A DNA stretch of 64,000 nucleotides from an archaeon (GTDB lineage Archaea > Nanobdellota > Nanobdellia > Pacearchaeales > GW2011-AR1). Made by a program: the position numbers and the translations under genes. The notes under the pieces were generated by a model that saw only the letters and a list, made by a program, of their open reading frames with translations, was not told the DNA's origin and ran no database searches. Location of the stretch: assembly GCA_021107855.1 (NCBI GenBank), contig JAIORZ010000002.1, forward strand, positions 245,425-309,424. Reading direction: 5' to 3'. The first letter of the stretch is position 1; the number at the start of each line of letters is the position of its first letter. Below are positions 17,515-31,997 of this stretch, piece by piece.

Positions 17515-17700
17515 GGTTTAACTGTTGTTGCTTGACCCGAACGAAGTGAGAGCCTGCAAGGCGTGGCAAGAAATTATGAAATAATTTCGCAGAGTTTTAA
17601 TTTTTCTTTTCAGGTTGGGGAAGGACGGTGGGACGACCAATGTATTTGAGAGATAAGCCCGCTTTTTGTTTCTTTTTTCTAAAAAGAAAATGAAATAATC
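17515..17700. repeat. Structured intergenic element with several hairpins (REP/MITE-like)
   Basis: CCGAACGAAGTGAG core, GCC-TGCAA-GGC, GAAATTA-TGAAA-TAATTTC, TTTTCT-AAA-AAGAAAA. Confidence 0.35.
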
Positions 17701-25268: not shown

Positions 25269-25343
25269 TGGCCTCGAGGGGATTTGAACCCCCGACACCT
25301 AGATTAAGAGTCTAGTGCTCTAACCAGGCTGAGCTACGAAGCC
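25269..25343 (-). tRNA. tRNA-Lys(CTT), CCA not encoded
   Basis: GGCTTCG/CGAGGCC acceptor, CTAGA-CT-CTT-AA-TCTAG anticodon arm, GTTCAAAT T-loop. Confidence 0.97.
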
Positions 25344-25418
25344 ATGGGCGAAGTAGCGAAGTCCTTTTAGGCTGAGGGCCGCAGAGCGGGTCATCCCTGT
25401 GGGAAGCTACGAAGCCAT
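25332..25418. repeat. 14-bp direct repeat of the tRNA-Lys 5' end flanking a 59-bp GC-rich insert
   Basis: AGCTACGAAGCCAT at 25332-45 and 25405-18. Confidence 0.85.
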
Positions 25419-25452
25419 AAACATTCATGAGAAATTCAATTTAAAAAACTAT

Positions 25453-25719
25453 CTAACTAACTATCTTCCTAATCGCGGCAATATGCTCCGAAACCTCAGT
25501 CCCTCTCTTCGTCAACTTAATAATCTTAATCCTTCCCTTCTTCTCAAAACTCACAAGCCCAATCTCCTCCAAAGTCTGCAAAATCTTCACGGCATGCGAA
25601 TACGTACAATCGACCTCCTTAGCCAACTGCGAACCGTACTTCGCCCGAGAAACTTTCCCAAGCGCTATCAGCATCATCGCTGGTTTTCTCCTGAAAAATA
25701 AATCAAAGCTGGTTCCCAT
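25453..25719 (-). CDS. Winged helix-turn-helix DNA-binding protein
   Basis: SQLAKEVDCTYSHAVKILQTLEEIGLVSFEKKGRIKIIKLTKRG. Confidence 0.85.
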   Translation of the reverse strand: MGTSFDLFFRRKPAMMLIALGKVSRAKYGSQLAKEVDCTYSHAVKILQTLEEIGLVSFEKKGRIKIIKLTKRGTEVSEHIAAIRKIVS

Positions 25720-25889
25720 TGTATTGTTTAACGTATATATTATAACGTATATGTTAGAGTTATAATTTGCTTATAAGTTTTTCTGCTAATTTTCGCCCAC
25801 ACCCAGTAGAGACAGAATTTCGTTCCAGTGACAGAAAATTTCCGAGTAGCAACAGAAAAGTTTAAGTAATAATTCCCTATTCCCCTACC

Positions 25890-27173
25890 ATGCTAGATGT
25901 GAAATTTATTAGAGATAATATCGACATTGTAAAAGAGAATATGCGTCGGAAGAATCAAAAAGATTTGAAAATTGTCGACGAATTAGTTTCTTTGGATAGT
26001 AAATGGAGAAAATTGAAATATGATGAAGATGGGCTGAGAAGCGAGAGAAATAAGATTAGTGAAGAAGTTGGTGCATTGAAAAAGGCGGGTAAAAGTGCCA
26101 CCAAAAAATTGAAAGAAGCAAAAACAATTCCTAAGAAAATTGGTGAGATTGAAAAGAAAAGAAAAAAGTTGGAAATAAAAATTTTGAAAGTGCAAATGAA
26201 AATTCCCAACATCATGTCAGGCAATGTTCCTTTAGGAAAGAATGAGGATGAGAACGTTGAAGAGAGGCGAATTGGAGAACCTAAAGATTTAGGATTTGAG
26301 CCGAAGAGTCATGTTGAGATTTTAGAGAATCTGGAAATGGCTGATTTTGAAAGTTCAGCTAGAGTTTCTGGAACTGGATTTTATTATTTAGAAGACGAAG
26401 TTGCTATGTTAAATGTCGCCCTGATTAATTATGCAAGAGATGTCATGAGGTCGAAAGGATTTCGTTATGTCGAGACGCCGTATCTATTGAGAGAAGAAAT
26501 TATCGACGAGGTAACGGATTTAAATGACAAAGAGGCACAGATTTATTTGACCGATAATAAACCGAAGCTAGCTTTGATTGGAACGAGTGAGCATTCTTTA
26601 ATTGGGCGATTTGCCGGAACAGAAATTGATTTTAAAAAATTGCCAATTAAACAAACGAGTTATTCGATGTGTTTTAGAAAAGAGATTGGGGCACATGGAA
26701 TTGACGAAAAGGGTTTATTTCGAACGCACCAATTCAACAAAATCGAAATGATTGTAATTTGCGGACCCGACCTCCCTAAATCAGAATATTTTTACAAAGA
26801 AATGCAGGATATCACGGTTGAGATTTTTGAGAAATTGGGAATCCCGGTTAGAATTTTGAAAATTTGTTCTGGTGATTTGGGGGATTTGAAGTATGAGCAA
26901 ATTGATGTTGAGGCATGGAGTCCCAGGAAGAAAAATTGGTTTGAAGTTGGAAGTTGTTCTAATTTGACGGAAAGTCAGGCTCGGAAATTGAAGATTTTTA
27001 CAAGGAATAAAGGAGAGAGAGTCGTTCCACATACTTTGAATAATACAGCAATTGCGACTTCGAGGGCATTAGTTGCGATTCTAGAAAATTTTCAAAATGA
27101 AGACGGAAGCATCAACGTCCCAGAAGTTCTAATCCCTTACATGGGCGGATTAAAAAAAATCGAAAAGAAATAA
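25890..27173 (+). CDS. serS: Serine--tRNA ligase
   Basis: MLDVKFIR, coiled-coil arm, LIGTSEH, CFRKEIG, GLFRTHQFNKIE, EVGSCSN, HTLNNTAIA.SR. Confidence 0.97.
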   Translation: MLDVKFIRDNIDIVKENMRRKNQKDLKIVDELVSLDSKWRKLKYDEDGLRSERNKISEEVGALKKAGKSATKKLKEAKTIPKKIGEIEKKRKKLEIKILKVQMKIPNIMSGNVPLGKNEDENVEERRIGEPKDLGFEPKSHVEILENLEMADFESSARVSGTGFYYLEDEVAMLNVALINYARDVMRSKGFRYVETPYLLREEIIDEVTDLNDKEAQIYLTDNKPKLALIGTSEHSLIGRFAGTEIDFKKLPIKQTSYSMCFRKEIGAHGIDEKGLFRTHQFNKIEMIVICGPDLPKSEYFYKEMQDITVEIFEKLGIPVRILKICSGDLGDLKYEQIDVEAWSPRKKNWFEVGSCSNLTESQARKLKIFTRNKGERVVPHTLNNTAIATSRALVAILENFQNEDGSINVPEVLIPYMGGLKKIEKK

Positions 27174-28355
27174 TCAACTCGTCATAATTTCAATCCCATC
27201 CCGATGCCTCAACGCATGATCCTTCCCAACCGGCTGCTTCGTCCTAACATCAATCGCCTTAACAAACTTATCCCCAATATCACTATGAAGATGATACGCA
27301 AAATCAAGCGCCGTCGAACCGCTCGGAAGCAAAAAGCAATCGGGCAAAATGTTCCCCTTCGAATCAGCCAACTTAGAGCCAGCCGGAAAAATAGCGACAT
27401 AATCTAACAAATCAAAAACCGCCTTATCCAAAACCTCCTGAACCCCGGTCGAACCAAACTTCTCCAAAACATTCTCCCGTATCTGCTCCAAAGCCTTCTT
27501 CTGCTCCTCGCTTATCTTATCCTCATTAATTTCAAACGCGGACTCCCCCTGAACATATTCAATCATCCCCGCCTTCGCCGCCTGTCTCAAAGAAAGTTCC
27601 GAATCAGCAGAACACGGAATAATCTGAATCTCCGGAAACGCCAACTTCAACTTTTCCAAATTCTCCGAAGCACCCGGTTTATCTATCTTATTCGCAGCAA
27701 TCAACATCGGTTTCGTCGAGTGGCGCAAAGTCTTCGTAAAATTAGCCAAATCTTCAGGCGACCACGATGTCGGATTCTCAGGATTGAGCTTCAACTTAAT
27801 CAAAACCGATTTAACATCAGCCTCCTTAACCCGAAGCCCAGAAAACTGTTTAGCAACAGACTTAGCAAAATCCTGCTTCGTAGACTGAATCGTCCTCGAC
27901 AACTTATCCCAAACCTTCTCAAAAATCGAAGCATACCACTTATTCAACTCACCCTCCAACATCTCAACATCCGCAACCGGGTCCCCCTCGCCCTCGCGCC
28001 CCTCAACATCAGTCGTCGCAGAAATATCAACAATCTGAATAAACATATCAGCCTGCCTCAAATCGTCCAAAAATTTATTACCCAAACCCTTCCCCTCCGA
28101 AGCACCCTTAACCAACCCCGCAACATCCATCATCTCCACCGGCACAAACCTAACATCACCCGTACAAAACCCCGTCCTAGGATTACACCTCGTTCCCAAT
28201 TCCTTGCAAAGTGCCTTAACCCTAACATACCCAATCCCATGATTCGGCTCAATCGTGGCAAACGGATAAGACGCAATCAAAACATCTGACAGCGTCGCAG
28301 CTTTGAAAAACGTAGACTTCCCGCATGAAGGTTTCCCGACTAATCCTAATAACAT
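27174..28355 (-). CDS. ychF: YchF/OLA1-like OBG-family GTPase/ATPase with TGS domain
   Basis: GKPSCGKST, YPFATIEPN, DVAGLV.GA..G.GLGNKFL, ANKID, C-terminal TGS. Confidence 0.92.
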   Translation of the reverse strand: MLLGLVGKPSCGKSTFFKAATLSDVLIASYPFATIEPNHGIGYVRVKALCKELGTRCNPRTGFCTGDVRFVPVEMMDVAGLVKGASEGKGLGNKFLDDLRQADMFIQIVDISATTDVEGREGEGDPVADVEMLEGELNKWYASIFEKVWDKLSRTIQSTKQDFAKSVAKQFSGLRVKEADVKSVLIKLKLNPENPTSWSPEDLANFTKTLRHSTKPMLIAANKIDKPGASENLEKLKLAFPEIQIIPCSADSELSLRQAAKAGMIEYVQGESAFEINEDKISEEQKKALEQIRENVLEKFGSTGVQEVLDKAVFDLLDYVAIFPAGSKLADSKGNILPDCFLLPSGSTALDFAYHLHSDIGDKFVKAIDVRTKQPVGKDHALRHRDGIEIMTS

Positions 28356-28365
28356 TTTAACTAAA

Positions 28366-28484
28366 TGAGCCTGCGGAGATTTGAACTCCGGACCTCTAGC
28401 TTTCTTAGGCGAAAGCTAAACAACCCCCGTAGGAACTGCAGCCATATAAGACTAGCGCTCTAAACCAGACTGAGCTACAGGCTC
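28366..28484 (-). tRNA. tRNA-Ile(TAT) with a 43-nt intron at 37/38 (28402-28444)
   Basis: GAGCCTG/CAGGCTC acceptor; C32T33-TAT-A37; BHB formed by CTTA/TAAG central helix, two 3-nt bulges and GGC/GCC outer helix; TTTTTATA 31 bp upstream. Confidence 0.93.
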
Positions 28485-28523
28485 ATAGAATTAATGAATA
28501 ATTTAGATATAAAAAGATTGGGG

Positions 28524-29477
28524 TTACTTCTTACAAATAGCCAACGAATAAGCCCCATTCTCAGAAACCTTCACCGTCGACTCGTCAAAATACAAATTCA
28601 TGAAACTTATAAAATCCGACTTCTTATATTTATAAGAAACAATCACTATCACCTGGTCCCCAGCCTCGAACTTCAAGGACCTCCCCAAAAAAGAAATCTC
28701 CTTCGGATTTTTTATCGTGTAGAAAGACTCTATCCGCGAATTCTTGAACCTCACCCCAAACTCCACATCCTCTTTCTTCAACCCCAACTGAAGCAACGGG
28801 TAAATCGAGAACTTATTAAAATGCTCCGTATTATACGAATTCAAAATCTCCTCAGGCTTCCTATGGTCCAACCCATTCCCAATCAAGAGATAATCTCCTC
28901 CCTTCATAGAACTCCTTATCTCATAAAGAAGCTCATTAATCTCAAAATTCCCAAGCGTATTTCCGAGCAACAGAAAAACATTCTTCTTATATTCCCCCTG
29001 CCTCAGCAAAGTCGAAATATTATTTATATTCTCAAAATCAGAAATGTTCCACTGAAATTCTATAACCTCCACCGTATTCGTCTTACTCACTTTCTCAATA
29101 GCCTTATTAACCATATAACTACTAATATCAATCGGGCAATACCTTATCTTCGTCCCCTTAAGTTTCTCAATCAACATCGACGCCTTCCCCCCATCTCCAC
29201 ATCCAATATCAATTATATTTATCGGCTCGCCCCCAAATTTCTCCAAAATCTCCTTCGCATTATCATCTATCAAATCCAACTCCTGTTGAGTCACCGTTTT
29301 CTTATATTCTTCCTCATCCTCCAAATTCAAATATGCCTGAGCCTGTTCCGGAGTCAAATACCAAAGTTTCGAATCAGCAATATTCCAAATCCGCGTGTTG
29401 CCCTCGAGAGAATAGCCACGTTTAATAAGCTCACGAAAAATTAGGTCGTTGATTTGTTGGCTTTGTTTTTCTGCCAT
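28524..29477 (-). CDS. EgtD-like (Methyltransf_33) SAM-dependent methyltransferase
   Basis: IIDIGCGDGGK, YCPIDIS, FLLLGNTLGNFE, LLIGNGL, EILNSYN. Confidence 0.8.
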   Translation of the reverse strand: MAEKQSQQINDLIFRELIKRGYSLEGNTRIWNIADSKLWYLTPEQAQAYLNLEDEEEYKKTVTQQELDLIDDNAKEILEKFGGEPINIIDIGCGDGGKASMLIEKLKGTKIRYCPIDISSYMVNKAIEKVSKTNTVEVIEFQWNISDFENINNISTLLRQGEYKKNVFLLLGNTLGNFEINELLYEIRSSMKGGDYLLIGNGLDHRKPEEILNSYNTEHFNKFSIYPLLQLGLKKEDVEFGVRFKNSRIESFYTIKNPKEISFLGRSLKFEAGDQVIVIVSYKYKKSDFISFMNLYFDESTVKVSENGAYSLAICKK

Positions 29478-29549
29478 GATTTTACTGGGTTTTATTGGTT
29501 TTTATGTGTTTGTATTAGTTGTTAAAGAAGACAATAATTAAAAATTATT

Positions 29550-29972
29550 TTACACTAGTTCAGATAAAAATTCTTTCAACTTTCTGTGTATAGGAATATT
29601 AAAATAATCCTCAAGTTCATCTACGCTTACCCATTTCAATTCCACAAAATCATCCCCCGGACGCTCCTCTCCCTCAAAAACTTTTGTCAAAAAAGTGATG
29701 GACACTATTCTCGGTTTCTCTTCATAAGTTCTCGAAAAGAAAGTTCCTATATTTTTGACAGAATACCCCGTCTTAAGTTTCATTTTTTTCTTAAGAGCTT
29801 TATCTATATCCTCTCCCGGGCTCAATCTCCCTCCAGGAAAACACCATCCCAACAATCCAGCGTCCTCACCCTTCTTTCTTTTCCCAATTAAAATTTTCTT
29901 TCTAGTAGAATCCAAGATAATCCCCAAAACTATCACCTCAAAGTTCGGAACTTCTTTCTCCGTATTTTCCAT
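29550..29972 (-). CDS. NUDIX hydrolase (degenerate Nudix box)
   Basis: ILIGKR, WCFPGGRLSPGEDIDKALKKKMKLKTG; the catalytic Glu residues of REUXEE are replaced by Lys. Confidence 0.75.
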   Translation of the reverse strand: MENTEKEVPNFEVIVLGIILDSTRKKILIGKRKKGEDAGLLGWCFPGGRLSPGEDIDKALKKKMKLKTGYSVKNIGTFFSRTYEEKPRIVSITFLTKVFEGEERPGDDFVELKWVSVDELEDYFNIPIHRKLKEFLSELV

Positions 29973-30062
29973 AATATCCTAATGCGTTCTTTATTATTAA
30001 GCGTTTGCATTGATTGTCAGGAGGTAACAGGAGTAACTGTTTTGAATGAAAAGATTTCTAAT

Positions 30063-30161
30063 TTAATTTCTAAACAACAAATAAAAAACAACAAATAAAA
30101 GGAATAGCCCTATCCAGAAACCATATTTTTTCATAAATTCGTTTGTCTTGTTCCAATTCAT
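30063..30161 (-). CDS. 32-aa single-TM microprotein (absent from the ORF track)
   Basis: MNWNKTNEFMKKYGFWIGLFLLFVVFYLLFRN; TTTTTAAA 29 bp upstream of the ATG. Confidence 0.5.
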   Translation of the reverse strand: MNWNKTNEFMKKYGFWIGLFLLFVVFYLLFRN

Positions 30162-30195
30162 AGAATAATTAAGTAATTAATATTTAAAAATTTTA

Positions 30196-30268
30196 CGCTC
30201 CCACCGGGATTTGAACCCGGGTCACTGCCGTGAAAGGGCAGCATCCTTGGCCACTAGACTATAGGAGC
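30196..30268 (-). tRNA. tRNA-Glu(TTC), CCA not encoded
   Basis: GCTCCTA/TGGGAGC acceptor, CTGCC-CT-TTC-AC-GGCAG anticodon arm, GTTCAAAT. Confidence 0.97.
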
Positions 30269-30309
30269 ATCTACCTAATGATTGATTTTAATTTTTAAAG
30301 GTTGTTGTT

Positions 30310-30489
30310 GGATTTGAACCCGGGTCACTGCCGACCGTAAGGGCGAACTTTGAGCTGTCTGACTAATATATAGATATACAGATTGGTCGAAGTGAGTAGA
30401 GTAATTTGCTCGAATTTTCCCAACGGAGTGATTAGAAAATTTTAGAGTGAATTGCGAAAAGGTATCCTTGGCCACTAGACTATAAGAGC
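30310..30489 (-). pseudogene. Degenerate duplicate tRNA-Glu split by a ~120-bp insertion at the anticodon arm
   Basis: The 3' part GGATTTGAACCCGGGTCACTGCCG (30310-33) is identical to the intact gene; the 5' part 30464-91 has 1 mismatch in 28 nt; the promoter is duplicated; the 3' acceptor strand is missing. Confidence 0.8.
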
Positions 30490-30581
30490 ATCTCTTTAAT
30501 GGTTAATTTTAATTTTTAAAGGTTATGTTATATATATAGGGTAAGGGAATAATTTTAATAGCCAAAACATCTAACAAAGGA

Positions 30582-31997
30582 ATGGTCAAACTAAAAAAAA
30601 TCTCAGATTACGAATGGGAAATTCCTATCGAAAACGGAATGAACGTGCCAGGAAGAATTTTCGCAAGTGACAAATTAATCGAAAACATCAAAGAAGACAA
30701 AAGTCTCGAACAGGTAAAAAACGTAGCGCGATTGCCAGGGATTCTAGGAGCCAGCCTAGCAATGCCAGACATACACAGAGGATACGGATTCCCAATCGGC
30801 GGAGTCGCAGCTTTCGACTTAGAAAAAGGAATAATCTCCCCAGGAGGAGTAGGCTACGACATCAACTGCTCAGTAAGACTATTAAAAACAAATTTAACCG
30901 AGGAGGATTTGAAGGGGAAAGAAAAAAAATTAGCACATTCGTTGTCTAGGGCGGTTCCTAGTGGAGTTGGTCGCGGAGGAACTTTAAAACTAGACAACAA
31001 AGAACTCGATGAAGTCTTAAAAGGTGGAGCGCAGTGGGCTATTTCAAAAGGATACGGCAGCGAGGAAGATTGGAAGCATATCGAAGATGAAGGCAAACTA
31101 AATTTAGCAAATCCCTCCTTCGTTAGCCAAAAAGCGAAAGGCAGAGGCTCAAAACAACTTGGAACATTAGGCGCCGGAAATCATTTTTTAGATGTATTAA
31201 TTGTAGAAGAGATTTTTGACAATGAAGTTGCTAAAGTGTTCGGGCTAAAAAAAGGACAGGTCGTAATCTTAATCCATTGCGGCTCAAGAGGCCTAGGACA
31301 CCAAGTCGCCAGCGACTACATTAAACTAATGGATGAAAAATACGGGCATCCAGATTTTGACAGAGAACTCGTAAACGCACCAATCAATTCAGAGTTAGGC
31401 AAAAAATATTTCGGAGCAATGTGCGCCGCCGCAAACTTCGCCTTCGCCAACAAACAAATCATCACACATCTCATAAGAGAAAACATGAAACATTATTTCG
31501 CGGATTTCAAAGCAGGCGTCGTCTACGATATCTGCCACAACATCGCAAAAATTGAATCCCATTTCGTCGACGGGAAATCCCAAAACGTCTTAGTTATGAG
31601 GAAAGGTGCGACTCGTGCGTTTGCTCCCGGAAGAAAAGAAATTTATAAAGATTATAGAGAAGTTGGACAACCGGTTTTGTTACCTGGGAGCATGGGAACA
31701 CCGAGTTATGTTTTAGTTGGAACAGAAAAAGCCGAAGAAAAAAGCTGGGGAAGTTGTGCCCATGGGGCGGGTCGAGTTAGAAGCCGAAGTGAAGCACATA
31801 GAAAATTAAGTTTTAAAGAAGCTGTTGAAGATATGGAAAAAAGGGGCGTCTTTGTCGAAGCTGGAAAGAAAAAAGGGATGATTGAGGAATCGCCGTCTTC
31901 GTATAAGGATGTGAAGGAAGTAGTGCGAGTTTGCGATGAAGTTGAGTTAGGTAAAAAGATCATAAAGCTAAAGCCGGTTATAGTTGTAATTGGGTAA
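30582..31997 (+). CDS. rtcB: tRNA-splicing ligase RtcB
   Basis: MPDIHRGYGFPIGGV, GVGYDINC, LGTLGAGNHF, IHCGSRGLGH, HNIA, RKGAT, AHGAGR. Confidence 0.97.
   Translation: MVKLKKISDYEWEIPIENGMNVPGRIFASDKLIENIKEDKSLEQVKNVARLPGILGASLAMPDIHRGYGFPIGGVAAFDLEKGIISPGGVGYDINCSVRLLKTNLTEEDLKGKEKKLAHSLSRAVPSGVGRGGTLKLDNKELDEVLKGGAQWAISKGYGSEEDWKHIEDEGKLNLANPSFVSQKAKGRGSKQLGTLGAGNHFLDVLIVEEIFDNEVAKVFGLKKGQVVILIHCGSRGLGHQVASDYIKLMDEKYGHPDFDRELVNAPINSELGKKYFGAMCAAANFAFANKQIITHLIRENMKHYFADFKAGVVYDICHNIAKIESHFVDGKSQNVLVMRKGATRAFAPGRKEIYKDYREVGQPVLLPGSMGTPSYVLVGTEKAEEKSWGSCAHGAGRVRSRSEAHRKLSFKEAVEDMEKRGVFVEAGKKKGMIEESPSSYKDVKEVVRVCDEVELGKKIIKLKPVIVVIG

Follow-up and report, generated by a model that had tools for sequence, protein, structure and literature searches.

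Small hairpin elements in vestigial tRNA copies beside intact tRNA-Lys and tRNA-Glu genes of a Pacearchaeales genome

How archaeal tRNA genes gain introns, become split and are scattered over the chromosome is a long-standing question, for which integrative elements and intron transposition have been proposed as routes, neither of them directly supported. Transposition of archaeal tRNA introns was reportedly put forward by Fujishima et al. in 2010. Non-canonical archaeal tRNA introns and the proposed intron transposition have been reviewed (PMC4090602), and the route by which such introns and split tRNAs arrive is still described as open (bioRxiv 10.64898/2026.10.13.758758). The question is raised by a 64,000-nucleotide stretch of DNA from an archaeon of the Pacearchaeales (hereinafter the window; C2:245425-309424 of the metagenome-assembled genome (MAG) G000, which comprises 936 kb in 14 contigs, with ~38% G+C and a completeness of about 85%), in which three tRNA genes on the minus strand, tRNA-Lys(CUU), tRNA-Ile(UAU) and tRNA-Glu(UUC), are each associated with inserted sequence. 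A preliminary description of the window took the three inserts for members of a single family of small elements and the three loci for snapshots of intron gain. We compared these loci with the genomes of the same genus (n = 49, including G000), family (n = 301) and order (n = 401), with 20 same-genus relatives used for synteny. The inserts at the Lys and Glu loci belong to two families of hairpin elements, A and B, that are unrelated in sequence and oriented by opposite rules, A according to the tRNA and B according to the chromosome strand; the intron of tRNA-Ile belongs to neither. Judging from the sequences, the Lys and Glu loci appear to be two cases of a phenomenon found across the Pacearchaeota/Woesearchaeota lineage, in which hairpin elements sit in a vestigial partial tRNA copy beside an intact gene. 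The core of the original idea, namely that small repeated hairpin elements are tied to tRNA genes and to duplications of tRNA ends that spare the intact gene, holds for both loci.

The intact tRNA-Lys(CUU) gene (25269-25344; detected by ARAGORN, and with 69 bits by the Rfam tRNA model) is preceded, as previously noted, by a 59-nt insert between two 14-nt copies of its own 5' end; all features of this locus lie on the minus strand. The repeat, ATGGCTTCGTAGCT, consists of 2 leader nucleotides and tRNA nucleotides 1-12. Its proximal copy, X2 (25332-25345), contains the first 12 nucleotides of the tRNA itself, and the distal one, X1 (25405-25418), is a perfect copy of tRNA-Lys nucleotides -2 to 12. 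Between them lies the core of element A (25370-25404; 57.5 bits with the covariance model R1 that we used to search for this family), a two-hairpin module of about 32 nt (TCCC-ACA-GGGA and CCGC-TCT-GCGG) that follows D-arm position 12 (AGCT^CAG) of the vestigial Lys copy. The core pattern is TCCC-nnn-GGGATGAC-(hairpin)-CCTCA, with GGGATGAC and CCTCA conserved. The remainder of the leader (25346-25369), TAAAAGGACTTCGCTACTTCGCCC, is degenerate and comprises a (G)CTTCGC box, which also follows element A at Lys, Met, Ile and Thr genes of other genomes, and the sequence GCTAC..GCC, an imperfect inverted copy (X') of tRNA nucleotides 1-11.

A putative TATA box, TTTTTTAAAT (25439-25448), was read from the sequence 23 nt upstream of the G1 of X1, which places X1 at the usual +1 position relative to the promoter. 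The same spacing is found at tRNA-Glu and at the insert-free tRNA-Lys(CUU) genes of three relatives (G390, G242 and G007), where the promoter directly abuts the gene and the promoter regions are visibly homologous; relatives with empty sites, which the preliminary description had proposed to look for, accordingly exist. Promoter boxes, insertion points and several of the homologies reported here were read by eye. Because the spacing of the putative TATA box fits X1, the insert is best placed inside the former gene, and the old Lys promoter would now be aimed at a 14-nt decoy.

Element A has a second locus in G000, at tRNA-Lys(UUU) (C1:170301-170377), the only other tRNA-Lys gene, where the whole 95-nt upstream region recurs (C1:170205-170385 aligned to query positions 1-181 with 86% identity, E = 7e-54; A core at C1:170241-170275). 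X1 and X2 change together between the two paralogs (GGCTTCG versus GGCTCCG), acceptor base 68 changes to match, and the hairpin loops of the two A copies differ, with the stems retained. In hairpin 2 of element A, compensatory changes occur at all 4 pairs, and 98.9% of the alignment cells are paired compared to 88% in shuffled controls, the alignment being fitted to the model and hence favorable to structure. G-U pairs are confined to the tRNA-sense strand. Since both tRNA-Lys genes of the cell carry it, the leader must be compatible with tRNA function, and the simplest inference from the sequence is that it would be removed by RNase P at X2. G000 contains a full-length RNase P RNA candidate (72.5 bits against an Rfam cut-off of 84 bits; E = 1e-20). 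In the minimum free energy (MFE) fold of the whole Lys precursor, the 3' acceptor strand pairs with X1 and not with X2. Several leaders contain an inverted copy of tRNA nucleotides 1/2-10/11 just before the gene (those of Lys-CUU and Gln-CUG here, Met in G003 and Ile in G280), and one may speculate that this copy sequesters X1 during transcription. With regard to annotation, both tRNA-Lys genes would possess a 73-nt structured leader that opens with a decoy copy of the 5' end, so that gene prediction and promoter mapping would both put the start in the wrong place. Neither A nor B matches any Rfam family. A K-turn (C/D box) or a hammerhead in the A core (GGGAUGA...CUCA) was rejected because inspection by eye revealed neither the sheared G-A partner nor the GAAA motif, and no Rfam hit was obtained at E <= 1.

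The strict core pattern of element A occurs in 4 of the 401 order genomes, all within this genus. Together with the remaining copies, A is found in the genus at five places in five genomes, namely 5' of tRNA-Lys (G000), downstream of tRNA-Lys, in a vestigial 3' copy whose T-loop it interrupts (G008), 5' of tRNA-Met in 2-3 tandem units that each start with the first 12 nt of that tRNA (G003), in a vestigial copy of tRNA-Thr(GGU), within the D-arm (G342), and in a D-loop copy of tRNA-Lys (G013). With model R1, A-like elements were detected in 18 of the 301 family genomes, representing 15 genera. At least seven genera share the Lys 5' architecture, with an X1 that agrees with the 5' end of the tRNA at each locus (apart from a single mismatch in two cases), the local variants including GGCTTCG, GGCTCCG, GGCTCTG, GGTCCCG and GAGCCTA. 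The same 5' architecture is found at tRNA-Ile(UAU)-like and tRNA-Thr(UGU) genes, and 3' versions are found at tRNA-Gly and tRNA-Leu. At one locus (L153, in G227), A flanks tRNA-Val on both sides, and at another (L154, in G499), only a relic consisting of X1, A and a tRNA 3' end is left. The neighbors of A in the loci that we read are mostly Lys, Met, Ile, Thr, Val, Gly or Leu genes, and some copies (e.g. L151, L152 and L155) have no identifiable adjoining tRNA. By eye, the insertion point in these loci is always T^C(A/G), that is, AGCT^CAG in the D-loop or GGTT^C(A/G)A in the T-loop. Wherever a tRNA can be identified, A is co-oriented with it. We used GC skew as a stand-in for the replication strand, measured in windows of ~10-20 kb for B and 4-20 kb for A because the skew of the 0.5-0.8-kb loci was uninformative; by this measure, A is unrelated to the strand, with 11 of 19 copies on the G-rich one. 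In most relatives, tRNA-Lys has no leader.

At the Glu locus, the intact tRNA-Glu(UUC) gene (30196-30268, detected by ARAGORN and Rfam) has its own promoter copy (30285-30303) and is accompanied by the duplicate, split near the anticodon arm, that had been noted before; again, all features are on the minus strand. The vestigial copy consists of a 5' part (30461-30524), which includes tRNA nucleotides 1 to ~29 (30461-30489) and a promoter repeat (30506-30524) matching that of the intact gene, and of a 3' fragment that extends from the 3' strand of the anticodon stem to the T-loop (30310-30332, identical to 30207-30229), with a filler of 128 nt between the two. Within the filler lie the core of element B (30404-30453; nhmmer E = 8e-14), an A/U-rich hairpin repeat, AATTCACTCTAAAATTTTC...GAAAATTCGAGCAAAT, and a second repeat module (30344-30403) that by eye is homologous to the sequence after B at tRNA-Asn of G013 and that has matches in G002 and G390. 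With a degenerate anticodon arm and an end within the T-loop (..TTCAAATCC|AACAAC), the vestigial copy is called neither by ARAGORN with the intron option nor by Rfam. Given that it stops in the T-loop and lacks the 3' acceptor strand, this copy is, to judge from its sequence, a truncated tandem duplicate that includes the promoter, that is, a pseudogene, in agreement with the dead copy that had been envisaged. A split or permuted tRNA gene was rejected, as intact Lys and Glu genes are present and a tRNA-Glu(CUC) with an intron lies elsewhere. The preliminary description also drew attention to rtcB (30582-31997) next to the tRNA cluster. This adjacency is real and incidental: in none of the 20 same-genus relatives does tRNA-Glu lie upstream of rtcB, which removes the grounds for any role of the neighborhood and, for lack of synteny, disqualified the junction as a conserved locus in the search for empty sites.

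Element B is present in 7 copies in G000 (the six beyond that of the Glu filler with nhmmer E from 4e-16 to 7e-3), all of them 29-135 nt from a tRNA gene. Given that 1.8% of the genome lies within 200 nt of a tRNA gene, the probability of finding all seven copies near one by chance is about 5e-13. In the genus, B occurs in 26 of the 49 genomes, with up to 14 copies per genome, many of these at contig ends, and an intact tRNA gene lies within about 170 nt in 17 of the 20 loci fetched from other genomes. The neighboring tRNAs include Gly, Met, Thr, Lys, Glu, Ser, Trp, Leu, Tyr, Asn and Arg. The usual order is the intact tRNA, a short trailer, a copy of the variable arm and T-stem 5' strand, B, and finally a perfect 13-21-nt copy of the tRNA 3' end, which is made up of the 3' part of the T-loop, the T-stem 3' strand, the acceptor 3' strand and the discriminator. 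Because tRNA-specific T-arm sequence is found on both sides of it, B in this arrangement sits in the T-loop of a vestigial copy. Versions located upstream of the tRNA and including the promoter involve three tRNAs of G000: Glu, for which G022 also has one; Tyr, whose breakpoints are identical in G342; and Arg(UCG), with 55 of 55 nt identical. Furthermore, B forms tandem arrays, such as a 107-nt unit repeated 3-4 times at tRNA-Ser and a [tRNA-Met + B] unit that occurs twice.

Structurally, B is a long imperfect hairpin of about 52-68 nt, with 92.4% of the cells paired compared to 86% in shuffled alignments and with 22 compensatory cells compared to 8.6; this structure was written by hand on the alignment, as RNAalifold applied to a MAFFT alignment, in which the A/U runs were misaligned, gave none. 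The orientation of B follows the chromosome, whatever the direction of the tRNA. The forward strand of the element is on the G-rich strand in 7/7 copies of G000 and in 20/23 copies from 9 other genomes (27/30 altogether); in G000, the five copies on C1, where the skew is +0.3 to +0.5, are in plus orientation, and both copies on C2, where it is negative, are in minus orientation. The skew is very strong in 20-kb windows of this genome (+0.3 to +0.5 on C1 and -0.25 to -0.5 over most of C2) and about +-0.3 in the other genus genomes; within the 64-kb window itself it is weak and its sign switches. In a separate observation, segments of about 4.5-4.9 kb at two loci of one relative (L083 and L084, on contigs C31 and C24 of G340) are delimited by identical 100-140-nt units in which B is joined to a tRNA 3' end; the second of these contigs (5031 bp) has a terminal direct repeat of ~136 nt and may be circular or repeat-collapsed.

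The tRNA-Ile(UAU) gene (28366-28484, minus strand; 57.4 bits with the Rfam tRNA model) stands apart from this pattern. Its 43-nt intron (28402-28444) is, as previously described, a bulge-helix-bulge (BHB) intron. In the Rfam tRNA alignment, it appears as a 44-nt insertion at 37/38, and the motif read from the sequence is a strict, canonical BHB at that position, with a central helix CUUA/UAAG, in which exon nucleotides 32-35 (CUUA) pair with UAAG of the intron over 4 bp, two 3-nt bulges (UA^U and AA^A) that contain both splice sites, and an inner helix GGC/GCC. No second copy of the intron was found anywhere in the G000 genome. Alignments that span all 119 nt of the gene, intron included, were obtained in 33 other genomes of the genus; the intron is therefore old and not a snapshot of gain, and these alignments mark it as an ordinary, conserved and vertically inherited intron outside both repeat families, so that its proposed membership in a mobile family, or recent acquisition, does not stand. 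The short hairpins and CTTCG motifs that had been thought to unite the three inserts fared no better. In Smith-Waterman local alignments evaluated against dinucleotide shuffles, the similarity of the inserts is within the range of the shuffles (p from 0.17 to 0.76), whereas true relatives reach 71 and 82 against about 12-15. The suggested tie to an element at ~17540 failed in the same way on either strand. That element (17520-17640) is a hairpin-rich intergenic sequence present in a single copy in G000, and it is not significantly similar to any tRNA insert.

The explanation that we favor, with moderate confidence, is that two unrelated kinds of small non-autonomous element, A and B, integrate as DNA where tRNA genes code for loops and are retained solely in vestigial duplicates. 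Under this model, insertion would occur in the conserved hairpin-forming regions of the gene (D-loop, anticodon region and T-loop) and would survive only where the end of the tRNA is duplicated, with a perfect repeat of 13-21 nt that sometimes extends over the promoter, leaving an intact gene. At the Lys locus, the old promoter would start transcription at the vestigial copy, and RNase P would remove the 73-nt leader. Recombination between the direct repeats could then either delete the insert precisely or build tandem arrays and relics. We infer mobility from the patchy distribution of the elements, the presence of A at different tRNAs in sister genomes, the existence of both filled and empty sites, the copies at contig ends, and the locking of B to one chromosome strand. 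Assembly artefacts are an unlikely source of the Lys and Glu structures because the architectures recur at a second locus in G000 and in independently assembled MAGs. A and B appear, provisionally, to be undescribed, as a literature search of incomplete coverage yielded no description of either.

Several observations weigh against this model. No transposase or recombinase is linked to A or B. The Y1 transposase (PF01797), which had been suggested as a candidate in the form of a TnpA/RAYT-type nuclease, gave 0 hits in G000, is present in only 12 of the 49 genus genomes, and is absent from the B-rich genomes G342 and G390. Cas1 (PF01867) was found only on C4 of G000, a 9.5-kb contig with 41% G+C, and in 0 of the 48 other genus genomes. 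The occurrence of Y1_Tnp does not track that of B, and both enzymes were rejected as general drivers because their distribution does not follow that of the elements. Moreover, A and B lie inside a duplicated tRNA segment and not between simple target-site duplications, so that a cut-and-paste picture does not fit, and the origin of the duplication, with tRNA-derived sequence on both sides of the element, is unexplained by the model. The occurrence of the Lys 5' arrangement in at least seven genera, with X1 tracking X2 and with G-U pairs in the sense strand only, would fit a selected RNA function as well. Finally, the identical breakpoints of Tyr plus B in G000 and G342 imply that some copies are old.

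The duplicated tRNA ends could alternatively represent attL/attR scars of integrative elements (viruses or plasmids) mobilized by tyrosine recombinases, with A and B as the arms that remained after deletion, an explanation that we consider unlikely. Integration of this kind typically produces direct repeats of a tRNA end, as observed here (13-21 nt), tyrosine recombinases are ubiquitous, with ~400-aa integrases common in the genus, and this route has been proposed for the disruption of tRNA-Thr in Caldiarchaeum (Sugahara et al. 2012, PMC3293823). What looks like a classical integrated element is present in G000 itself (C3:25194-36505), where tRNA-Arg(CCU) (C3:25194-25268) is followed by an open reading frame (ORF) for a 426-aa tyrosine recombinase (at about C3:25819) and by a 20-nt repeat of the tRNA 3' end 11.2 kb downstream (C3:36486-36505). 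However, B was seen at neither junction of this element, and an uninterrupted repeat bounding an integrase-encoding element was found only there; the Lys, Glu and other B loci show no such repeat, and no integrase gene was seen adjoining them. Furthermore, A and B lie inside a vestigial loop with tRNA stem sequence on both sides, whereas an arm would be expected beside an uninterrupted att core; one element of ~30-70 nt occurs at more than 10 tRNA identities, whereas an integrase normally has a single target; some cases are on the 5' side or include the promoter in the duplication; and the orientation of B tracks GC skew and not the tRNA. The reading of the loci as snapshots of intron gain, with inserts that are, or become, introns cut by EndA and joined by RtcB, is very improbable and, for Lys and Glu, largely refuted, notwithstanding the true BHB intron of tRNA-Ile and the weak resemblance of the hairpin module in the tRNA-Gln(CUG) and tRNA-Ser(GCU) leaders to the start of the canonical intron of tRNA-Thr(GGU) (p = 0.05 and 0.10, respectively). 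Against it stand the great age of the Ile intron and the truncation of the Glu copy, a pseudogene that lacks the 3' acceptor strand. At the Lys insert, a scan of all 9 splice registers that give mature tRNA-Lys found no BHB or relaxed BHB, and on this ground the insert was rejected as an intron. Because of the duplication, any 4-mer taken for the central helix would face a copy of itself; self-pairing is limited to GGCU, through two G-U pairs and with 0 bp in each flanking helix. AGCU, which we read as the sole 4-mer of the repeat that is fully complementary to itself, would give rise to an incorrect D-loop.

Two further explanations dispense with mobility of the elements. A and B might be selected RNA modules that are co-transcribed with tRNAs, as leaders that aid processing or prevent misfolding, as terminators or as small RNAs, and that are kept together with matching tRNA ends. 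The covariation of the hairpins, the constant co-orientation of A with the tRNA and the restriction of its G-U pairs to the sense strand are all consistent with this possibility, as is the A leader, with X1 identical to X2, at both tRNA-Lys genes of G000 and at Lys genes of at least seven genera. In addition, the T-runs of B could terminate archaeal transcription, and the inverted copy X' could keep X1 off the 3' strand of the acceptor, with which X1, and not X2, pairs in the MFE fold. We nevertheless regard selected modules as a rather improbable explanation because the distribution is patchy (18/301 genomes for A and 26/49 for B), A occupies five different tRNAs or positions within one genus, B occurs in both orientations, on either side of the tRNA and in arrays, the flanking tRNA pieces decay, and most relatives make tRNA-Lys without the leader. 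The other possibility is that no mobile element was involved, and that slippage or unequal recombination at hairpin-prone tRNA DNA was followed by the spread of A and B through gene conversion via D-arm and T-arm sequence. Such a scenario would account for the tandem arrays at tRNA-Ser (the 107-nt unit), at tRNA-Met of G003 (2-3 units) and in the [tRNA-Met + B] duplication, for the (G)GCTTCGC box that follows A at Met, Ile and Thr genes and resembles a fossil of the tRNA-Lys 5' end that was carried along, and for the sequence TAGCT^CAG common to all targets of A. The tyrT locus of E. coli, where tandem units downstream of the tRNA gene each repeat the 3' terminal segment of the tRNA, provides a precedent. 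We give this scenario little credence, given that it leaves unexplained the strict orientation of B by GC skew, the presence of the same element in T-loops of tRNAs that share only ~10 nt, and the dispersal of up to 14 copies in a genome.

Returning to A and B as inserting elements, comparison with known systems reveals likenesses as well as differences. Strand-locked orientation is expected from insertion into one replication strand, as in the IS200/IS605 group. Similarly to PATEs, the non-autonomous elements of this group, and to REP-type elements, A and B are very small, built of hairpins, non-coding and multi-copy, and are presumed to act as single-stranded DNA; the strand bias of B, read from GC skew as a proxy, resembles the bias expected of IS200/IS605 elements. 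In contrast to these systems, A and B are found almost only in the loops of tRNA genes, no Y1 transposase gene was found in G000, and A is not strand-locked; besides, both elements lie within duplications of tRNA ends, and duplications are not generated by IS200/IS605 elements. With respect to the features of miniature inverted-repeat transposable elements, both families are multi-copy and dispersed (in G000, 2 copies of A and the 7 of B). B has inverted repeats by virtue of its long imperfect hairpin, A has no visible terminal inverted repeat, and the flanking direct repeats of both are 13-21 nt of a tRNA end, not a simple target-site duplication of fixed length. No autonomous partner encoding a transposase was found in the binned genomes, unbinned contigs not having been searched.

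Casposons depend on Cas1, generate 14-15-bp target duplications and use the 3' ends of tRNA genes as targets (PMC5137440, PMC4779613). The 13-21-nt tRNA-end repeats are of a similar length, and tRNA genes are the targets here too; however, Cas1 was confined to the single contig of G000, and casposon-like terminal inverted repeats were not seen in A, by inspection only. The integrase scars of SSV-type and pNOB8-type elements share with the present loci the partial tRNA copies beside intact genes and the direct repeats of tRNA ends, but here the inserts are 40-130 nt long, involve many tRNA identities, lie inside a vestigial loop, and are found on the 5' as well as the 3' side. As in the case of non-canonical introns, related short sequences occur at the D-arm, anticodon and T-loop of different tRNA genes in one lineage; in contrast to such introns, there is no BHB at the boundaries, and the interrupted copies are vestigial and stand beside an intact, uninterrupted gene. 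Compared to E. coli tyrT, which is a single locus, A and B are dispersed hairpin families that span many tRNAs and genomes.

It is conceivable, although we consider it doubtful, that hairpin elements targeting tRNA loops constitute an unrecognised route to interrupted, duplicated and fragmented archaeal tRNA genes. Such elements would recognise the D, anticodon and T hairpin loops that tRNA genes form as single-stranded DNA, and their insertion would create, or select for, duplications of tRNA ends. Recombination between copies would then yield arrays, minihelix-like relics, such as L154, and tRNAs flanked by the element on both sides, as in L153. If this is the case, tRNA genes with the same element on both flanks could in principle be excised as cassettes, and non-canonical introns and split tRNAs would have a concrete source of raw material. 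This lineage offers many datable events, with defined loop positions, filled and empty sites in close relatives, tandem arrays and decaying vestiges, and the question of how tRNA genes become interrupted or split can be tested with population metagenomes and metatranscriptomes of DPANN archaea.

Nearby copies of tRNA ends are widespread in G000, where at least 11 of the 38 tRNA genes identified by ARAGORN (a count that includes the search with the intron option) have a perfect copy of one end in the vicinity. In the leaders of tRNA-Gln(CUG) (C1:154154-154279) and tRNA-Ser(GCU) (C1:223778-223912), a perfect 14-15-nt copy of the 5' end upstream of the gene is followed by a related 39-nt hairpin insert, AAGTAACAT..ATGTTTCRTGAAT, which we denote module C. 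The two copies of this module are mutually related (p <= 5e-4), and their weak likeness to the start of the tRNA-Thr(GGU) intron is mentioned above. Several isoacceptors were not found by ARAGORN in G000, e.g. Gly-UCC/CCC, Pro-GGG/CGG, Ala-GGC/CGC, Arg-GCG/CCG, Leu-GAG/CAG and Val-CAC; some of these may be hidden by non-canonical interruptions or lost to the incompleteness of the MAG.

The remaining observations concern individual contigs and the surroundings of the Lys locus. The match to Cas1 on C4 is a 306-aa ORF (C4:1044-1700, minus strand) that could belong to a CRISPR locus, to a casposon or to a mis-binned contig. On the 9-kb contig C5, tRNA-Ala(UGC) and tRNA-Ile(GAU) lie 25 nt apart (C5:8301-8478), which is the typical layout of the bacterial 16S-23S spacer, and for this reason the contig may be bacterial contamination. 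In the window, an 88-aa ORF (25453-25719, minus strand) lies between tRNA-Lys and the seryl-tRNA synthetase gene, and a similar sequence is found in the same place in G003. At this syntenic locus, with the same small neighbor gene (L023; G003:C13:9700-10200), G003 carries a promoter and, of tRNA-Lys(CUU), only the 5' half as far as the anticodon loop; 7 kb from this half copy, which could be a truncated or a split gene, lies a complete one.

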